Part shown: positions 14-16,408 of the stretch, piece by piece
Numbering within the stretch: position 1 is the stretch's first letter
Layout: each line of letters begins with the position of its first letter
Origin: a virus
Lineage: Duplodnaviria > Heunggongvirae > Uroviricota > Caudoviricetes
Length of the DNA stretch: 16,408 nucleotides
Direction: 5' to 3' (one strand)
Virus record (IMG/VR): IMGVR_UViG_2617271072_000010
Span: 1 to 16,408 of that record
The notes under the pieces: model-generated
Seen by the model: only the letters and a program-made list of their open reading frames with translations
Told to the model about the DNA's origin: nothing
Database searches by the model: none
Translations under genes and position numbers: made by a program

Positions 14-880
14 CTAAGCGAGGTTCTTGTTTTCAAATTGTTCCGGACTGAGGCCGCCACACCAACTGTGCCGCCGCCACCGATTGTAATCACATTCGAT
101 ATAATTAAACACCGTTGCCCGCATTATTTCCCGGCTGATAAAGTGTTCTCCATGGATACATTCCACTTTCAGCGAATGAAAGAAGCTTTCCACGCAGGCA
201 TTATCGTAGCAGCAACCTTTTGCGCTCATACTTCCACGCAGATTATGCCGCTTCAGTTGCGCCTGATAATCTGCTGAACAGTACTGGCCTCCACGGTCCG
301 TGTGAACGATAACGTTCCGGGGCCTCTTACGCCGCCACAGCGCCATCTGCAGGGCATCGCAGGCCAGTTGCGCCGTCATGCGTGGCGACATTGACCAGCC
401 AATAACGGCACGTGACCACAGGTCAATGACCACTGCCAGATACAGCCAGCCTTCATCTGTACGTAAGTACGTGATGTCTCCTGCCCACTTCTGGTTCGGG
501 CCACTGGCGTAAAAATCCTGCTCCAACAGATTTTCTGACACAGGCAGGCCGTGTGCGCGGTAGCTGACCGGGCTGAACTTCCGGGAGGCCTTTGCCCTCA
601 GTCCCTGACGGCGCAGGCTTGCCGCCACGGTTTTTACGTTAAAGGGGTAACCCTGAGCACGCAGTTCATCCGTCAGGCGTGGGGCACCGTAACGCTGTTT
701 TGACCGGGTAAAAGCCGCGAGGACAACGCTGTCGCAGTGTTGGCGGAACTGCTGACGCGTGCTTATCCTTGTCCGCCGCTGACACCACGTATACCAGCCG
801 CTGCGGGCCACCCGGAGCACGCGGCACATTGCTTTGATGCTGAACTCAGCCTGATGTTTTTCAATAAAGACATACTTCAT
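14..880 (-). CDS. insF: IS3 transposase OrfB (InsF), DDE integrase-type catalytic domain, 288 aa
   Basis: Translation [36 protein letters not shown]... is recognised as IS3 InsF; overlaps the upstream orfA by 4 nt as expected for the IS3 frameshift arrangement. Confidence 0.92.
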
Positions 881-1176
881 TTCAGGCGCTTCGCGAAGTA
901 TGTCGCGGCCTTTTGGAGGATAGCCAGCTCTTCATCCCGTTCTGCCAGCTGGCGTTTGAGACGTGCAATCTCGGTAGACATCTCCAGTTCACGTTCAGAA
1001 GACGTCTGCTGATTTTGCTGTTTACTGCGCCAGTTGTAGAGTTGTGATTCATACAGGCTGAGTTCACGGGCTGCGGCAGTAACACCGATGCGTTCAGCAA
1101 GCTTCAGGGCTTCACTGCGAAATTCAGGCGAATGCTGTTTACGGGGTTTTTTACTGGTTGATACTGTTTTTGTCAT
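877..1176 (-). CDS. insE: IS3 transposase OrfA (InsE), HTH/leucine-zipper part, 99 aa
   Basis: Translation [50 protein letters not shown]... from the ATG at 1176, preceded by GAGGTGA; the ORF track starts three codons earlier at 1185. Confidence 0.9.
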
Positions 1177-1245
1177 GTGAGTCACCTCTGACTGAGAGTT
1201 TACTCACTTAGCCGCGTGTCCACTATTGCTGGGTAAGATCAACCT

Positions 1246-3731: not shown

Positions 3732-3753
3732 AAAAAAGGCCGCATAAGCGACC
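3732..3753 (-). terminator. Rho-independent terminator candidate just upstream of the holin (tR'-like position)
   Basis: Minus-strand hairpin GGTCGC-TTAT-GCGGCC followed by TTTTTT; a second imperfect hairpin (3711-3728) follows. Confidence 0.4.
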
Positions 3754-3776
3754 TCGACATTTGGATGTTAGTTTTT

Positions 3777-3998
3777 TTATATCCAGTGGCTCATCAATTC
3801 CGGCTGTACCTTTTGAAGCACTTCTTGCGGTGATGGGGCTTCAATAATTTCTGAGAATACACATCCCCTATCATTGAGTCTATGCTTAAACCTTGCCATT
3901 TTAGCGCTATCTCTATCAAGATACTCTTCTGAAACAACAAGATGCTTCTCAACTTCCAAACCTTCTTCTTTATGCTGGTAAACGTAATAAAACCCCAT
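3777..3998 (-). CDS. Hypothetical small acidic protein, about 73 aa from the internal ATG
   Basis: The ORF track starts at 4013, but the second ATG (3998) has a good RBS (AAGGAG, 5-nt spacer). No family recognised. GC intermediate. Confidence 0.35.
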   Translation of the reverse strand: MGFYYVYQHKEEGLEVEKHLVVSEEYLDRDSAKMARFKHRLNDRGCVFSEIIEAPSPQEVLQKVQPELMSHWI

Positions 3999-4045
3999 GG
4001 AGTCTCCTTTCATTTAGGTGCCTGTTATGAATACCACCATAAAGC

Positions 4046-4067
4046 AAAAAACCCCGCCAAAGCGAGG
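4046..4067 (-). terminator. Rho-independent terminator candidate downstream of the nuclease-like cargo gene
   Basis: Minus-strand hairpin CCTCGC-TTTG-GCGGGG (one G-U) followed by TTTTTT. Confidence 0.45.
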
Positions 4068-4222
4068 TTTAAAATCTTTTAAGTACGTGTCCAAGTGACC
4101 AATCTTAACACAGTACAACAAGATTTGCGGACCGCGCTAGGGATTTCTTATTCTTTTTTACCAGATTAGATGCAGCTCGACATCTATAAAGAATCATTAT
4201 TATATTCAATCTTTAAATAAGT

Positions 4223-5072
4223 TCATAGTTGAACCCTAGCACTTCCACCATTTTGAACTGGTGAAATATAATCGGAGAACTCAGGATATAAGGAAATTTT
4301 ACCAGAGGTTAACATAAACATAAATGTACCGAAAAACTTCATGTGGAAATATTCATCATCTTTTGGAGTCAAGAAGCAACTTTTAAAGTTTTGCTGGCGA
4401 AGCATCGGGAATGGAAGTTTCACTCCATCCGGGGCTGAATAGGCAAGAAGCCCATCTTCGATACTAAGGATTAGGTTATGCCTATGCCTAAATTGTATTT
4501 CATCAGAGTAAAGATTATCTAGTTCATTTTCTATATTGCTTATATCAAAATCAAGCTTCTTACAGATCAATATGCTAGAATAAACATGAAAAGGGTTGTT
4601 TTCCGGATCAAAGTTAAAACTGCTAGAGTTAAAACTTAATGAAGGGTTTTTTATTCTCTCGGCGATTGCTTTATTTTTCGCCAGTTTGTTAATGGCGTCT
4701 CGAAAAGCAGCGCGAGATAAATTTGACTTAACCTCACCAATGCAGTAAACAGATTCAATTGGGAAAAACCTATGTTTATCTCCACCTTGAAAAAGTGGTG
4801 TCATTTTAGAATCAAAAATAACAACATCACACTGCGTGCTAATGTCATCCATCGCGGACATTAAAAAACCATTAGATATAGCAAGTCGCTGAGGAACTAT
4901 AAAGTTCAAAAAATCCCTTACTACCGACTCACGATATATTCCATATTCACCAGCATGAATAAGACGATTGTTTTCAGGATCATAAAAAACTTCAGTTGAA
5001 GTTGCGGAAAAAGAATTTTTTAAAAATATCTATTTTCTCACGGTATAGTGCATCAAATATCCTATTTGACAT
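4223..5072 (-). pseudogene. Low-GC cargo gene with a PD-(D/E)xK-like nuclease motif, family unassigned; split by a +1 frame change in a T5-A6-T5 run (reconstructed product about 283 aa)
   Basis: ATG at 5072 has a strong RBS (AGGAGG) and opens a 27-codon frame ending at 4992. The main frame (4223-4909, TTG start in the ORF track) is open back to 5029; one base fewer in the TTTTT/AAAAAA run near 5005-5020 joins them. Motif: ...CDVVIFD...(22 aa)...PIESVYCIGEVKSN (D then E-x-K). Confidence 0.45.
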
Positions 5073-5093
5073 ATTACCCTCCTGTATATATGA

Positions 5094-5129
5094 ATACCCA
5101 TGATACAAATATAGTCTCATCATGGGTAT
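5094..5129. promoter_or_regulatory. Perfect 11-bp inverted repeat (ATACCCATGAT-N14-ATCATGGGTAT) between Q and the cargo gene
   Basis: Read directly from the sequence; no adjacent T-run on either strand, so not an intrinsic terminator. This is where pR'/qut would be expected. Confidence 0.3.
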
Positions 5130-5146
5130 ACACTTCAGAGCATAAA

Positions 5147-5521
5147 TTAACTTATCTCAACATCCATATCTAGTGTTATGTCTAGCATAGAAAGGCAACC
5201 ATCGATGAACCCTTCAGCCATCTGCATTTCAATACGTATCAATTTCTCATCTTTTTTGCGAGCTCTTGCAAGCTTTCTTTTCGAGATGCCATACAGGTAA
5301 TGGGCCACAATCAAAGAATGCTCGTACGGTTTTCGCTTTTTAAGAAGAGCAAGACAACCTTCAATAATTAATGCATCACTATCTGAACAAGCCTGACGTG
5401 TTTTGCTTGTATAGGGAAGAAGCCCTTTAAACCCAGCAGCTATAGGAGAATAGTCTACTCCTGAACTATCACTCGCCGCCCATGCTCCCCAACGATCCAG
5501 AACCATTTGAATATCACGCAT
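5147..5521 (-). CDS. Late-gene antiterminator Q (DLP12 QuuD / Qin QuuQ type), about 124 aa
   Basis: MRDIQMVLDRWGAWAA...AAGFKGLL... resembles the Q antiterminators of E. coli lambdoid prophages as I recall them. ATG at 5521 has GGAG 7 nt upstream; the ORF track starts at a TTG at 5536. Confidence 0.8.
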   Translation of the reverse strand: MRDIQMVLDRWGAWAASDSSGVDYSPIAAGFKGLLPYTSKTRQACSDSDALIIEGCLALLKKRKPYEHSLIVAHYLYGISKRKLARARKKDEKLIRIEMQMAEGFIDGCLSMLDITLDMDVEIS

Positions 5522-10733: not shown

Positions 10734-11406
10734 ATGAAAACAATCCATGACATCCGGCGGTCTAACGCCAGAAAACTGAGAGATGGTGTTGGCGGGAATT
10801 CTTCCTTTGCCACTATGATTGATCGCGAGCCAACCCAGACCAGCAGGTTTATGGGAGATGGTGCTACTAAAAATATCGGTGACAGCATGGCACGACACAT
10901 CGAAAAATGTTTCGACCTGCCTGTCGGATGGCTCGATCAAGAACACCAGACAACGAACATCACAAAAAACCTGATGTTTCAATCACTAATAAACAAATCA
11001 CATTAGTCCCTGTCATATCATGGTACAGGCCGGAGCATGGAAAGAAGTTGGATATTCTGAGGTTGATTTGAGCACAGCAGAAACGTATCCCTGCCCTGTA
11101 CCCTGTGGGGAAATGACTTATATCTTGCGGGTGATAGGTGATTCAATGATTGATGAGTACCGCCCGGGAGACATGATTTTTGTCGATCCTGAAGTACCTG
11201 CCTGCCACGGTGACGACGTTATTGCATTGATGCACGATACAGGTGAAACCACCTTCAAAAGGTTGATAGAAGATGGGACACAGCGTTATCTCAAAGCGTT
11301 AAACCCAAACTGGCCTGAGCCTTACATTAAGATCAACGGTAATTGCTCTATAATTGGTACAGTGATTTTCTCAGGAAAACCAAGAAGATACAAAATCAAA
11401 GCCTAA
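10734..11406 (+). pseudogene. CI-like repressor (HTH domain plus S24 LexA-like peptidase domain) split over three frames
   Basis: 10734-11006 encodes the HTH domain (...IGDSMARHIEKCFDLPVGWLDQE...); 11020-11406 encodes the S24 domain (MVQAGAWKEV...RVIGDSM...TTFKRL). A third frame between them reads ...KQITLVPVISW. One extra A in the A6 run (10964-10969) and one extra base near 11021 would give an intact repressor of about 222 aa. Confidence 0.7.
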
Positions 11407-11418
11407 TCAATGTTTATG

Positions 11419-11441
11419 AACCTGCTTCGGCAGGTTTTTTT
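11419..11441 (+). terminator. Rho-independent terminator after the repressor gene
   Basis: ACCTGC-TTCG-GCAGGT perfect 6-bp stem followed by T6-T7, 13 bp after the stop codon. Confidence 0.6.
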
Positions 11442-11445
11442 ATAC

Positions 11446-11478
11446 TTGACAATGTACCTTTGAGATACATAATGTACC
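11446..11478 (+). promoter_or_regulatory. pL-like promoter candidate with operator-like motifs
   Basis: TTGACA (11446-11451), 16-bp spacer, CATAAT (11468-11473). ATGTACC occurs twice and TACAT-a-ATGTA forms a palindrome (11466-11476), the same TGTAC core as the operators at 10647-10718. Confidence 0.35.
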
Positions 11479-11558
11479 CAAGCGAAACAACGAACAGGCA
11501 GGACGCCCACGAAGTAGCCGCCTGGGGCATATGAAGTCCAGGATGATTCGTTAGCAAC

Positions 11559-11580
11559 AAAAAAGCGCCCTATAGGACGC
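11559..11580 (-). terminator. Terminator-like hairpin downstream of the minus-strand membrane-protein gene
   Basis: Minus strand GCGTCC-TATA-GGGCGC (one G-U) followed by TTTTTT; 234 bp from the gene end, so the assignment is weak. Confidence 0.3.
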
Positions 11581-11813
11581 TTCGCTCTTTAACAATCTGG
11601 AGATCCCCAACACTTAACGGGATTTTGGCTTCGGTTCTGGCGGTGAAGGACGAGGTTTTAAGGGTATATGATCCTCTTTCCATGTATATATAAATGCATT
11701 CATTTGGTCATCTCAATATAGAATCCATTATTAATTCATACTCATAAAGCCTGTGTGACTTTGGTGATGGTGGTCTGGGCTTTGGAGGTACATGGTTAGG
11801 GATTATGGGAATT

Positions 11814-12293
11814 CTATTTGTCATTATTACACCTTTTTGACCGAGGCAAATCTCCAGCAAACCATGCGATAACGCTATGCATGAATGATATTTCTGACTC
11901 ATCAACACGTCCCAGCGCAATACAGGTCCGTTTGAACGCAGCATCTTGTAAAGATCTCCATGGATTACTATCAGCGTCTTGAACCTTTAAAAACCGAGTG
12001 CGTAGTTCGTCATCAGAAAGGGAGGAAAACTCAACAATCAACCTTTTATACTGTCGCATCTGTTCCTTTGATAAGCCAGCTTCCTGCCCAAATTGGTATA
12101 CCAATTGAAGCACCGACAAAATAGCTACAGATGCGCCAAAAATAAACATATTGCTATATGGCGCAAAAACAGAAAAGCCCAAGACAATGAGAACAAGAGT
12201 TATGCTCTTGTCTATCCGATTTAAAAGGGTGTAATTCATTTTCTCAAGAAAGAAAGAATAATGAATATCGAATGCTAGATCGTCTCGAGTCAT
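11814..12293 (-). CDS. Low-GC membrane protein (two predicted TM helices, soluble C-terminal domain), 159 aa; superinfection-exclusion-type moron candidate
   Basis: ATG at 12293 with RBS AAGGGA; hydrophobic segments ITLVLIVLGFSVFAPY and FIFGASVAILSVLQLVYQF; opposite strand to the surrounding operon, adjacent to the immunity region. No family recognised. Confidence 0.5.
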   Translation of the reverse strand: MTRDDLAFDIHYSFFLEKMNYTLLNRIDKSITLVLIVLGFSVFAPYSNMFIFGASVAILSVLQLVYQFGQEAGLSKEQMRQYKRLIVEFSSLSDDELRTRFLKVQDADSNPWRSLQDAAFKRTCIALGRVDESEISFMHSVIAWFAGDLPRSKRCNNDK

Positions 12294-12399
12294 CTCTATT
12301 CCCTTACATTTCAGGTTTCGGCTCAGGGATCGGTGCTGGTCTCTGATTTACCGGAACATGAAATTTTTCATTGCTATCTACGTACATATTTCCTTCCTA

Positions 12400-12449
12400 C
12401 CTGTTGTTGGGATATCCAGATTATACCGAATCCTTGTTGTTGGGGAATA
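12400..12449. repeat. Two direct repeats CC(T)TGTTGTTGGG(G)A about 32 bp apart in a non-coding stretch
   Basis: Copies at 12400-12414 and 12432-12449, read directly from the sequence; function unknown. Confidence 0.3.
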
Positions 12450-12673
12450 ACCAGGTCCACCTCGCCTGATGTGGCTAAAAGCAGGCACATAACAGCTAAG
12501 TATTTTCAACCAGAGAGAATCCTTAGCGTTGTGGTGAATGCGGCTCAGCGCACGCGGGTTAAGGTTGAGGCTGACAGTCGACCTTCTGTGGATACCCACC
12601 CGTCTGGTGTACAACCTTCGCCAGGCACCGGGAGGCACCCGGCACCACAACTTTATGCTGTGTGTTGTCTTGG

Positions 12674-12718
12674 CGGTACCAGCTTGTACCCTTGCTTCCG
12701 GCTGGTACCGTCCTTTTT
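12674..12718 (+). other. 10-bp perfect stem (CGGTACCAGC / GCTGGTACCG) with a 17-nt loop, followed by T5; possible 3' end of a plus-strand RNA
   Basis: Read directly from the sequence; lies inside the GC-rich 12300-12900 stretch where every overlapping ORF translates to low-complexity sequence. Confidence 0.3.
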
Positions 12719-12930
12719 ACAAAACAGAGAAGAGCATCATCGGACGACGGGCTCATAACCCAATCCATCCGGGCGGCTGCCACCACAGGTGTTCTTCTCT
12801 GTTTTGTGGAGAAACTAACCGCCCTACGGGGGCATTTATGGAAATGTAATTGACTCAATAATCGCCGGACGGTGAGGGCTTCCTTTTACCCGAATTCAGC
12901 GCGGTGCAGCGCATATACGTGGAGAACAAA

Positions 12931-13437
12931 ATGTCATTTATTAAAACTTTTTCCGGGAAGCATTTTTATTATGACAGGATAAATAAAGACGACATCGTTA
13001 TTAACGATATCGCGGTTTCCCTTTCAAATATCTGTCGCTTTGCAGGACATCTTTCACACTTCTACAGCGTCGCCCAACATGCGGTGCTTTGCAGCCAGCT
13101 GGTACCGCAGGAATTTGCTTTTGAAGCGTTAATGCATGATGCAACAGAAGCGTATTGCCAGGACATCCCGGCTCCACTGAAACGCCTTCTTCCTGACTAT
13201 AAACGGATGGAAGAAAAAATAGACGCCGTAATCCGTGAAAAATACGGGTTACCCCCGGTTATGAGCACGCCTGTGAAATATGCCGATCTCATCATGCTGG
13301 CAACCGAACGCCGCGATCTCGGGCTTGATGATGGCTCTTTCTGGCCTGTACTGGAAGGCATCCCGGCAACAGAGATGTTCAACGTGATTCCACTGGCACC
13401 GGGCCAGGCCTACGGGATGTTTATGGAACGTTTTTAA
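12931..13437 (+). CDS. HD-domain phosphohydrolase (YfdR-like), about 168 aa
   Basis: H...HD motif (RFAGHLSHFYSVAQHAVL...ALMHDATEAYCQDIP); start set at the ATG at 12931 (GGAG 7 nt upstream) rather than the ORF-track start at 12904. YfdR resemblance is from memory. Confidence 0.7.
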   Translation: MSFIKTFSGKHFYYDRINKDDIVINDIAVSLSNICRFAGHLSHFYSVAQHAVLCSQLVPQEFAFEALMHDATEAYCQDIPAPLKRLLPDYKRMEEKIDAVIREKYGLPPVMSTPVKYADLIMLATERRDLGLDDGSFWPVLEGIPATEMFNVIPLAPGQAYGMFMERF

Positions 13438-15688: not shown

Positions 15689-16408
15689 ATGGAAGATTTA
15701 GTATGTAGTTGGTCACCGAAACTAATCGTTGAACTGATAAAAAGCATTGCATGGCCAGTTGTTGTTCTTATCATCGGATTCAGATTCCGAACTCGAATTT
15801 TTGAAGTTGTCAGTTCTTTTTTTTCTAAAAATACGCTATCAGAAATATCCGCGACTTTATCGGGTATATCGGCAAAATTCATAGCAGAGAAACAAACAGC
15901 AGAAGTATTAGAATCTTCAAATTCTAATTTGGCGAGCTTACAAAAGAATACGAGCATTGAAGCTATAAGAATACACCATGAACAATTTAAAACTGAATTC
16001 AGTGAAGAATTATATCAAATCATATTGAAACAAGCATCTGATCTAGATACTGACAATGAAATTAAAATTGATTTATTGGCACGAGAAATATCTCTTTTGC
16101 AAAGTGCTGTAAGATACTTTGAAATAAACAAGGTATTATTCCGCTCACAATATGACTTATTTTATACAATTGCTAGCAATGGTGGTTATATCCGCAAAGA
16201 AGATGCTATTCAGTTCTTTGAAAAAACAAAAAATCATAATAAAGAAGCTTTCGCGGATTGGGATTGGATCAAATATATTTCGTATCCAGTAAGCAATAAA
16301 CTCATTTATGAAAGTGATGCTGGTTACAAACTCACTACGATAGGAAGCTCATATGTAGCTTTTATGTCAAAGAACCCACAATTGATTGACGAGCTTGCTA
16401 AATTATAA
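15689..16408 (+). CDS. AT-rich hypothetical protein with an N-terminal TM anchor, 239 aa; cargo gene distal to the integrase
   Basis: Ideal RBS (AAGGAG, 5-nt spacer) before the ATG at 15689; hydrophobic segment LIVELIKSIAWPVVVLIIGF; stop codon is the last three bases of the window. No family recognised. Confidence 0.5.
   Translation: MEDLVCSWSPKLIVELIKSIAWPVVVLIIGFRFRTRIFEVVSSFFSKNTLSEISATLSGISAKFIAEKQTAEVLESSNSNLASLQKNTSIEAIRIHHEQFKTEFSEELYQIILKQASDLDTDNEIKIDLLAREISLLQSAVRYFEINKVLFRSQYDLFYTIASNGGYIRKEDAIQFFEKTKNHNKEAFADWDWIKYISYPVSNKLIYESDAGYKLTTIGSSYVAFMSKNPQLIDELAKL

Follow-up and report, generated by a model that had tools for sequence, protein, structure and literature searches.

The open reading frame (ORF) at positions 11814-12293 (-) of the window, by which we mean the whole 16,408-nucleotide (nt) stretch of viral DNA analysed here, encodes a 159-residue protein with two transmembrane (TM) helices that resembles the SLATT membrane effectors of bacterial anti-phage systems. 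The window is an Escherichia coli lambdoid prophage, and the gene is the predicted second of four cistrons, comprising an upstream ORF (uORF), the SLATT-like gene and two further micro-ORFs, d1 and d2, followed by a terminator. This cassette lies in the slot used for sieB by phages lambda and P22. The analysis establishes its anatomy, its conservation, the homology of its slot and promoter region to those of sieB, and a remote SLATT similarity of its main protein. We propose that the main ORF encodes the effector of a small accessory operon which the prophage carries in its sieB slot, a proposal with about as much chance of being right as of being wrong. What is new here is a partner-less SLATT-like effector together with proline-rich micro-ORFs, in a promoter-equipped sieB slot.

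A first-pass annotation, made from the sequence alone, had described the ORF as a low-GC gene transcribed against its surroundings, with its own ribosome-binding site, and this description is borne out. The ATG-started ORF of 159 codons appears at exactly these coordinates in the ORF list of the window, its GC content is 39.8% (37.5% at third codon positions) against 47.3% for the window overall, and a Shine-Dalgarno-like AAGGGA stands 7-8 nt 5' of the ATG. Both flanking genes are on the (+) strand: a cI-type repressor of the LexA/S24 type at 10734-11406 (Peptidase_S24, 8.6e-25) and yfdR at 12904-13437, the product of which is a 5'-deoxynucleotidase. The gene had also been placed next to the repressor; it does lie in the same region, but 408 nt separate it from the cI stop, with the cI terminator and the pL promoter in between. 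The protein is identical in sequence to WP_000196297.1, annotated as 'hypothetical protein' in NZ_CP116987, a record to which the window is 98% identical over 10 kb, and the ORF recurs with 100% identity in further E. coli genomes and in IMG/VR contigs. Close homologues number 78, in the Enterobacterales, and the family searched at E <= 0.001 in a library of 1.8 billion proteins comprises 257 clusters at 50% identity, nearly all of its members being stand-alone proteins of 150-180 residues. Given these homologues and clusters, the ORF is not a chance reading frame and is evidently under selection.

Two TM helices followed by a C-terminal domain had been predicted, and both hydropathy and structure prediction agree with this. 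Kyte-Doolittle windows reveal two neighbouring hydrophobic helices, one spanning residues ~30-47 and the other ~49-68, with a turn of only a few residues between them. Lysine and arginine residues flank the helix pair on either side, which suggests a hairpin with an N-in/C-in topology. The AlphaFold2 model, built on 29 homologues, is all-helical, with a predicted local distance difference test score (pLDDT) of 79.9 and a predicted template-modelling score (pTM) of 0.70. Its helices span residues 3-41, 49-66, 68-87, 94-105, 115-127 and 137-145, in the order of a long N-terminal helix running into TM1, then TM2, then four cytoplasmic helices, and the helical part after TM2 extends over ~90 residues. 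The residues conserved across the family in this C-terminal part are Asp-108, Pro-111, Trp-112, Leu-115, Ala-119, Gly-147 and Pro-150 (D-S-x-P-W ... A-G-x-x-P).

SLATT proteins are described in the literature as predicted pore-forming effectors with two to three TM helices, present in cyclic-oligonucleotide-based anti-phage signalling systems (CBASS), in RADAR and in the defence-associated reverse transcriptase (DRT) systems DRT3 and DRT10; SLATT_4 (PF18186) is a type I CBASS effector. The known SLATT effectors act with a signal-generating partner, be it a CD-NTase, a SLOG protein or a reverse transcriptase, and how SLATT proteins are activated is named as a central open question in a preprint on DRT10. 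For comparison with this group we used the Pfam SLATT_1-6/DUF4231 clan and the NCBIfam models NF033631-NF033635. When 120 diverse members of the family were scanned against NCBIfam, 52 matched SLATT_4 (best E 2.2e-5), 17 matched SLATT_1 and three SLATT_fungal, while TIGR04402 was matched by eight and each remaining family by three at most. The matches are collinear, protein residues ~21-131 aligning with profile positions 22-129 of 154 in the 10 members viewed individually. In PADLOC, the CBASS '2TM effector' model was matched by 11 members and the DRT 'RTasSLATT' models by six, and a few homologues bear the SLATT name in UniRef. The best structural matches of the model are viral SLATT-annotated proteins, and these matches show giant viruses likewise to encode SLATT-like proteins. 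The architecture is also that of a SLATT protein, as both hydropathy and the AlphaFold2 model place an adjacent TM hairpin between N- and C-terminal helices.

Several results weigh against this assignment. The window protein itself has no SLATT match in Pfam, NCBIfam or PADLOC; indeed it has no Pfam or PADLOC match of any kind, its only NCBIfam match is a weak one to TIGR04402, and its PHROG match, phrog_6315, is of 'unknown function'. Neither the window protein nor the members reach a curated SLATT score, all matches lying under the cut-off (23.1 bits for the best individually seen member, against 55), and in Pfam no SLATT match at E <= 0.01 was obtained among the 120 members. Foldseek gave its matches at marginal E-values (3e-3 to 0.2) and nothing significant among solved (PDB) structures. 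Three rounds of sequence searching, two of them profile searches with diverse family alignments, gave no bridge to any Pfam-annotated SLATT protein, and neither did the Pfam scan of the 120 members. Hydrophobic hairpins can draw spurious profile matches, and hydrophobic composition could inflate the SLATT similarity. On balance we call the protein SLATT-like and think it probable that it belongs to a divergent branch of the SLATT superfamily. The first-pass annotation did not recognise the family, which on these results is a divergent relative of the SLATT membrane effectors, below threshold; the profile and structure searches it had recommended returned a sub-threshold SLATT signal but no match at a curated threshold and none to a solved structure.

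The ORF had been presented as a single gene. It is a real gene, but only one cistron of a small operon that it shares with three proline-rich micro-ORFs, whose predicted parts are, in the direction of transcription:

12457-12487 (-): conserved upstream motif, TGCCTG..TTTT..CCACATCAGGC...GTGG, upstream of the -35
12418-12449 (-): Psie-type promoter, with a -35-like TATTCC at 12444-12449 and a -10 TATAAT at 12420-12425
12304-12387 (-): uORF, 27 residues, MYVDSNEKFHVPVNQRPAPIPEPKPEM, preceded by AGGAAGGA
11814-12293 (-): main gene, 159 residues, SLATT-like two-TM protein
11708-11824 (-): d1, 38 residues, MTNRIPIIPNHVPPKPRPPSPKSHRLYEYELIMDSILR, motif part IPNHVPPKPRPPSPK, overlapping the last 11 nt of the main gene
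11614-11703 (-): d2, 29 residues, MNAFIYTWKEDHIPLKPRPSPPEPKPKSR, motif part DHIPLKPRPSPPEPKPK, starting 4 nt past the d1 stop
11562-11583 (-): intrinsic cassette terminator, a hairpin and then UUUUUUGUUG

The three micro-ORFs of the window (27-38 residues) have H-x-P-P-x-P-R-P-P in common, and runs of PPP, APP or PPxP lie near their stop codons. The uORF stop ends 10 nt ahead of the main ATG (13 nt if the stop codon itself is included), and the overlapping genes suggest translational coupling. A small conserved frame directly 5' of the gene was first seen in an upstream alignment of 17 diverse loci, and a systematic scan then revealed micro-ORFs of 21-35 residues on the strand of the gene, on both sides of it, with the motif H-(V/M/I/L)-P-P-x-P-R-P-P-x-P-K. 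Directly 5' of the gene a uORF is present in 40 of 41 representative loci, nearly always with the motif, and in two contigs it had been called independently by gene callers. It is also found in a Providencia phage and in P2-like prophages (Fels-2, Erwinia, Salmonella, Yersinia and a JGI contig), where the main proteins are only 25-35% identical yet the uORF is kept, that of Fels-2 carrying MSDSDNFHVLPRPAPAPKPEPGQDKK; these P2-like versions have the upstream peptide only. Almost every locus couples one to four such peptide genes tightly to the membrane gene. Directly around the gene in 32 loci, a strict form of the motif has 61 occurrences on the cargo strand and none on the opposite strand, compared with five in the remaining 277 kb. 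Codon-position entropy is 1.51 at third positions against 1.03 at first and 0.86 at second positions, and because third positions vary most we conclude that the micro-ORFs are coding and that the motif is conserved at the amino acid level. The peptides match no Pfam family. Two of 244 proteins, one from Pectobacterium (P0022) and one designated P0244, carry the motif as an in-frame extension of the C terminus of the main protein, and in the Pectobacterium protein the fused part is the equivalent of the d1 peptide. We also considered whether the micro-ORFs are part of the framework of the slot, and rejected this: motif micro-ORFs are absent from four loci with alternative cargo in the same slot, so they belong to the main gene.

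The first-pass annotation had likened the location to the accessory-gene hotspot in which lambda carries sieB, and the comparison proved apt for both position and regulation: the cassette occupies the sieB slot itself, and the region in front of it, which precedes varying cargo in other prophages, is homologous to the mapped sieB promoter of P22 and to the sequence upstream of lambda sieB. The upstream motif is common to the sieB upstream regions of lambda, P22 and a Hafnia phage and to other cargo genes in the slot. A pattern of 26 specified bases taken from this region matches the window once, against 0 expected, and 54 of the 91 loci fetched have it on their cargo strand; in the lambda locus (L005, 1397-1428) it lies 55 nt ahead of the sieB ATG. 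Paired changes between loci seem, as judged by eye in the alignment, to occur in two hairpin stems of the motif. A structured RNA leader upstream was tried as an explanation and rejected, as the fold of 12280-12500 (-) is no better than that of shuffled sequence (z = +0.55), and the conserved region is better explained as the Psie promoter region.

The promoter was located by aligning the sieB upstream regions of P22, lambda and the Hafnia phage with the window, a Klebsiella cassette locus and an E. coli locus with alternative cargo. In the P22 record NC_002371 the promoter and RNA start of sieB are annotated, and so is the internal start of esc. The P22 -35 and -10 align column by column onto TATTCC and TATAAT of the window, and the P22 RNA start aligns near 12411-12413, in the second CCCAACAACA repeat and ~25 nt before the uORF ATG. 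These repeats, at 12435-12444 and 12402-12411, are two matches where 0.03 are expected. From this homology to P22 we infer that the Psie-type promoter is active here; a generic sigma-70 scan, which counts against the proposed operon, did not call it.

The contents of the slot differ widely between genomes. Hafnia phage Pocitis76 has a genuine SieB behind the same upstream region, scoring 75.7 bits on PF14163, on which lambda SieB scores 103.5 bits. Of 5426 complete E. coli genomes, 1525 (~28%) contain the ~100 nt 5' of the uORF, whereas the full query reaching into the uORF is found in only 54; similarly, a 1551-nt query that takes in the entire cassette is covered to at least 80% by 52 genomes. 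Alternative cargo consists of at least four unrelated genes of ~145-170 residues, exemplified by a 171-residue coiled-coil/zinc-ribbon protein, including that of O157:H7, a 170-residue secreted LprI-like protein, a 167-residue unknown and SfIV gp36. Two loci hold tandem promoter-plus-cargo modules. These examples come from loci L081-L084, L090, L091, L071 (3018-3282) and L077. Because the upstream region is shared while the cargo differs, and because such tandem modules occur, the sieB slot is on these alignments a variable cargo hotspot, one that is equipped with its own promoter. We found no description of the slot as a promoter-equipped hotspot in the literature searched. BstA, beside the repressor of BTP1-like phages, occupies a comparable cargo site. 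The same logic of interchangeable anti-phage cargo in a conserved framework is known from the P2 and P4 hotspots (Rousset et al. 2022, PMC9122126), the sieB slot offering sieB, at least four unrelated genes, the present cassette and tandem modules. As a marker of the slot, the sieB promoter region would permit a simple harvest of candidate anti-phage genes.

The cassette is nested, in antisense, within the early-left transcription unit, the start of which is marked by the following predicted features:

11418-11437: cI terminator
11446-11473 (+): pL-type promoter, TTGACA-16-CATAAT, strong, firing into the 3' end of the cassette
11453-11469 and 11473-11489: two repressor-operator-like sites over pL
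11583-11595 (+): perfect boxA-like CGCTCTTTAACAA, on the pL transcript just before the cassette

The operator pattern matches the window five times, against 0.38 expected: two matches lie between cro and cI, two at pL, and the fifth, a weaker one with two mismatches, lies inside cI at 11097. The boxA-like CGCTCTTTAACAA has one match against 0.04 expected, and we take it, from lambdoid nut sites, to be a nut-type boxA; despite this perfect boxA, the stretch from pL to the early-left genes shows no gene for an N-like antiterminator. The promoter at 11446-11473 (+) is the early-left promoter. The geometry of the locus obliges its transcript to cross the whole cassette in antisense, from d2 and d1 over the main gene and the uORF to the promoter region; it would next reach a small RNA (sRNA) gene resembling STnc100/PasD at 12498-12721, and then yfdR, xis and int. 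The cassette terminator is, on the (-) strand, a hairpin of -11.7 to -14 kcal/mol with a U-run, while on the (+) strand the site folds at -7.2 kcal/mol, has no U-run and leads straight into boxA, and the terminator is thus predicted to work on the (-) strand only. The same antisense placement in a repressed early operon is seen in Klebsiella lambdoid prophages, in a Providencia phage and in P2-like prophages of Salmonella, Erwinia, Yersinia and a metagenome. The next downstream ORF of at least 70 residues is convergent in 69 of 80 loci; on the upstream side the orientation count is unreliable, as long ORFs that are spurious run through the promoter and sRNA region, which is non-coding.

Two further elements were observed at the edges of the cassette. 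AATCTGGA(G/T)ATCCC(C)AACA stands at both cassette ends in inverted orientation, at 11594-11607 (+) and 12409-12422 (-), one copy being in the promoter -10/RNA-start region and the other just past boxA on the pL strand; the AATCTGGA element may mark the boundaries of the cassette or be a binding site, common to both ends, for an RNA or protein. The STnc100/PasD-like sRNA at 12498-12721 (+) is encoded on the pL strand, with the cassette promoter on one side and yfdR on the other. At 39.6 bits (E 1e-5, taking the window as a whole) its match to Rfam RF02076 falls short of the gathering score, which is 47; the match ends in a hairpin with a U-run; there is also a weak DicF-like match at 12659-12713. 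STnc100 is related to the PasD sRNAs of pathogenic E. coli according to a 2026 preprint.

Taking these observations together, we propose a lysogen-expressed abortive-infection or exclusion module at the inner membrane that is silenced by pL transcription, a reading that we regard as evenly poised between right and wrong. For lysogen expression, pore activity, trigger, micro-ORF roles and silencing by pL, we infer the following course of events. The operon would be read from the Psie-type promoter, antisense to the pL unit and nested in it. Because the promoter is nested inside the repressed pL unit, expression in the lysogen is to be expected, and both this geometry and the precedent of sieB suggest that the cassette would be made while pL is silent. 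When the resident phage is induced, pL would fire and convergent or antisense transcription would shut the cassette down, a parallel to P22 sieB, the translation of which is controlled by sas, an antisense RNA critical to the SieB system (PMC12197685, PMC7067206). The 159-residue product would form a helical hairpin in the inner membrane, its two ends facing the cytoplasm, and, by analogy with the SLATT proteins of CBASS, RADAR and DRT, be kept inactive until an infecting phage supplies the trigger. It would then oligomerize and permeabilize or depolarize the membrane, aborting the infection, with the helical C-terminal region (residues ~69-150) as the likely sensor or gate.

The micro-ORFs, whose roles are the least certain part of this mechanism, would most likely set the amount or the activity of the effector. 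By one route expression would be polyproline-dependent and translationally coupled, with the ribosomes that finish the peptides throttling the effector; the tight coupling suggests that translation of the effector depends on ribosomes completing the micro-ORF peptides. By the other route short-lived peptide partners would restrain the pore, and the rare fusions suggest that the peptides may also bind the effector. Leader peptides that arrest the ribosome likewise have polyproline runs near their stops and are coupled to the next cistron, whereas here there are three copies, on both sides of the effector gene, an arrangement not usually seen with a simple leader peptide. A bolder form of the proposal, which we think rather unlikely, is that of an orphan SLATT-like pore gated by its own proline-rich micro-ORFs and not by a nucleotide signal, the micro-ORFs acting as arrest peptides dependent on elongation factor P or as labile partners resembling proline-rich antimicrobial peptides (PrAMPs), with phage-disturbed translation as the trigger. 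If this were true, the sieB slot would be a general promoter-equipped hotspot that could be mined for further systems. If the cassette does protect lysogens, it would provide a SLATT-type membrane effector without a cyclase or reverse-transcriptase partner, and such a partner-less effector would bear on how SLATT proteins get activated; the polyproline micro-ORFs offer a concrete handle that can be mutated.

The lack of a visible partner also weighs against the proposal. No CD-NTase/SMODS, SLOG, reverse transcriptase or RADAR gene was seen among the subset of window ORFs scanned or in the RefSeq reference locus, and no signal-generating partner stands beside the homologues examined in Klebsiella, Erwinia, Salmonella and metagenomic contigs. 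The PADLOC scan of the protein and three neighbouring proteins gave no cyclase, and the ORFs scanned with Pfam and PHROG no nucleotidyltransferase. Nor did the literature searched yield expression or phenotype data for the family or cassette, or any description of the family, the cassette or its proline-rich micro-ORFs. The slot and the sub-threshold SLATT relation do fit the suggestion of an exclusion or abortive-infection gene made in the first-pass annotation, but the function remains a candidate one.

Of the known systems, SLATT effectors (SLATT_4 of type I CBASS, and those of DRT10/UG17, DRT3 and RADAR) are what the protein looks most like: they likewise have a two-helix hairpin with a long helix before it and cytoplasmic helices after it, the similarity is recurrent, collinear and sub-threshold, strongest to SLATT_4, and both occur in cargo sites of mobile elements. 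They differ in that the window gene is paired with proline-rich micro-ORFs and a sieB-type promoter and has no visible cyclase, SLOG or reverse-transcriptase partner; among the ORFs scanned and in the annotated reference locus no CD-NTase accompanies the effector, as CBASS would require. In its working mode the module would be most like SieB or RexB, a prophage membrane protein by the immunity region that aborts superinfection. RexAB of lambda is likewise encoded beside the repressor and is expressed in the lysogen, where its membrane component RexB collapses the membrane potential and aborts infection. Rex is a two-protein system with a four-helix RexB and is co-transcribed with cI. As the lambda record shows, rexA and rexB share the strand of cI and are situated between cI and pL, whereas the window gene is on the strand opposite to cI, has another promoter, encodes a two-helix protein and has neither a RexA-like neighbour nor a PADLOC match, and a RexAB system is not what the window locus contains. 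SieB (lambda, P22; PF14163) has the same slot, a homologous promoter and upstream region, an antisense position inside the pL operon and a similar size, both proteins having ~160-190 residues. It is prophage-expressed and inhibits the lytic development of superinfecting phages (PMC12197685). The window gene thus shares the position of sieB, antisense in the pL operon behind a Psie promoter, but not its sequence. Homology to lambda SieB was rejected when hhalign gave the family profile a probability of 0.3%, and SieB was neither matched by the window protein nor present among the 25 of 34 families listed from the Pfam scan (E <= 10) of 32 homologues. The micro-ORFs of the cassette are a further difference, sieB having none.

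Other explanations of the cassette can be set against the proposed SLATT-like effector module. One that overlaps with it, and that we hold to be unlikely, is an addiction or abortive module of the toxin-antitoxin kind, in which the membrane protein is the toxin and the proline-rich peptides are unstable antitoxins; upon translation shut-off or prophage loss the peptides would decay and free the pore, so that they would serve as the sensor. The coupling of one to four peptide genes to the membrane gene nearly everywhere, specific to this cargo, speaks for such a module, and the two natural in-frame C-terminal fusions argue for a partnership at the protein level. In the model of a fusion the last 10 residues reach a pLDDT of 75, though the peptide has no alignment depth, and the AlphaFold summary holds no contact information, so that docking is unproven. 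Fusions as rare as these (2 of 244 proteins) could be frameshift artefacts, the P2-like versions have to manage with the upstream peptide, and toxicity of the protein and instability of the peptides are without support. The peptides could instead be the active agent, as proline-rich peptides aimed at the ribosome or a chaperone, with the membrane protein as exporter or immunity factor. Several peptide genes conserved at the amino acid level would suit this, and the core H-(V/M/I)-P-P-x-P-R-P-P-x-P-K presumably recalls the oncocin and apidaecin cores Y-L-P-R-P-R-P-P and Y-I-P-Q-P-R-P-P-H-P-R. We nevertheless consider it very improbable, as the likeness is that of a short low-complexity motif, the peptides have no signal peptide, no features of leader cleavage and no Pfam match, and nothing about the membrane protein is transporter-like.

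The location of the gene bears on two more readings. A small inner-membrane protein in a slot used by prophage exclusion genes, with no partner for an activating signal among the ORFs scanned, might block the entry of phage DNA at the inner membrane, as do P22 SieA, T4 Imm and HK97 gp15, so that the cell survives and exclusion is not abortive. SieB, the usual occupant of the slot, acts after DNA entry. Moreover, the periplasmic turn of the window protein has only a few residues, nearly all of its conserved non-membrane part is predicted to be cytoplasmic, and the family similarity favours SLATT effectors over entry blockers; given also that SieB is an inhibitor of lytic development in superinfecting phages (PMC12197685), we find an entry block improbable. 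A role in the lytic programme of the phage itself, as an early membrane-active takeover function, or in counter-defence, as an orphan effector look-alike that disturbs host SLATT immunity, would be consistent with the SLATT-like proteins of giant viruses. It is also favoured by a subclade of ~30% identity (P0234, P0237; 175-181 residues), which lacks the uORF and lies co-directionally in an early operon of Sak, YqaJ and RdgC, with YAcAr also present, in metagenomic contigs (L085, L086, L088, L089); the members of this subclade would be made in lytic growth, which is a further point against a role confined to the lysogen. In the window, however, the gene is antisense to the early operon, with its own Psie-type promoter and terminator, and it is antisense in the other lambdoid and P2-like loci examined. 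Since this is the arrangement of a lysogen-expressed accessory gene, we rate a lytic or counter-defence role as quite improbable. In L085 and L086 the subclade gene is followed by that of a 134-residue multi-TM protein.

Knowledge of the cassette family corrects gene calls in published records. The homologue of the main gene is unannotated in Fels-2 (L002, 30367-30798 +) and in Yersinia phage vB_YenM_42.18 (L003, 2965-3411 -), where the annotated ORFs that cover its place are opposite-strand ones (STM2733.1/STM2735 and vBYenM4218_008, respectively); these are probably mis-annotations. In the window itself the cI, integrase and replication genes appear split, by indels at 10963, 11021 and ten other positions between 6572 and 15085. 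Relative to a 98.1%-identical reference, 12 of 12 indels are in homopolymer runs, and the cassette is identical to that reference. Prophage decay as the cause of the split genes is disfavoured, all 12 indels being in such runs, and they are probably errors of long-read sequencing.

Elsewhere in the prophage, an insertion sequence of the IS3 family, assigned by eye from its translations, occupies 14-1185 (-), with orfA at 877-1185 and orfB at 14-880, at the late-gene end and beside a Rha/antirepressor-like gene. At 15689-16408 (+), just past the integrase, an ORF of 30-37% GC with only a weak match to DUF7659 runs off the window; lying towards the attachment site, it may be a further cargo gene. 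In a low-GC island at 3750-5150, flanked by the lysis genes and Q, an ORF at 4223-4909 (-) with a TTG start encodes a 228-residue DUF6602/NucC-like nuclease of the PD-(D/E)xK type, matched in PADLOC by PDLC01495 (1.9e-22) and by NucC effector models (4e-15 and 3e-14). With, again, no cyclase seen, it appears to be a second cargo gene of the 'orphan effector' kind in this prophage.

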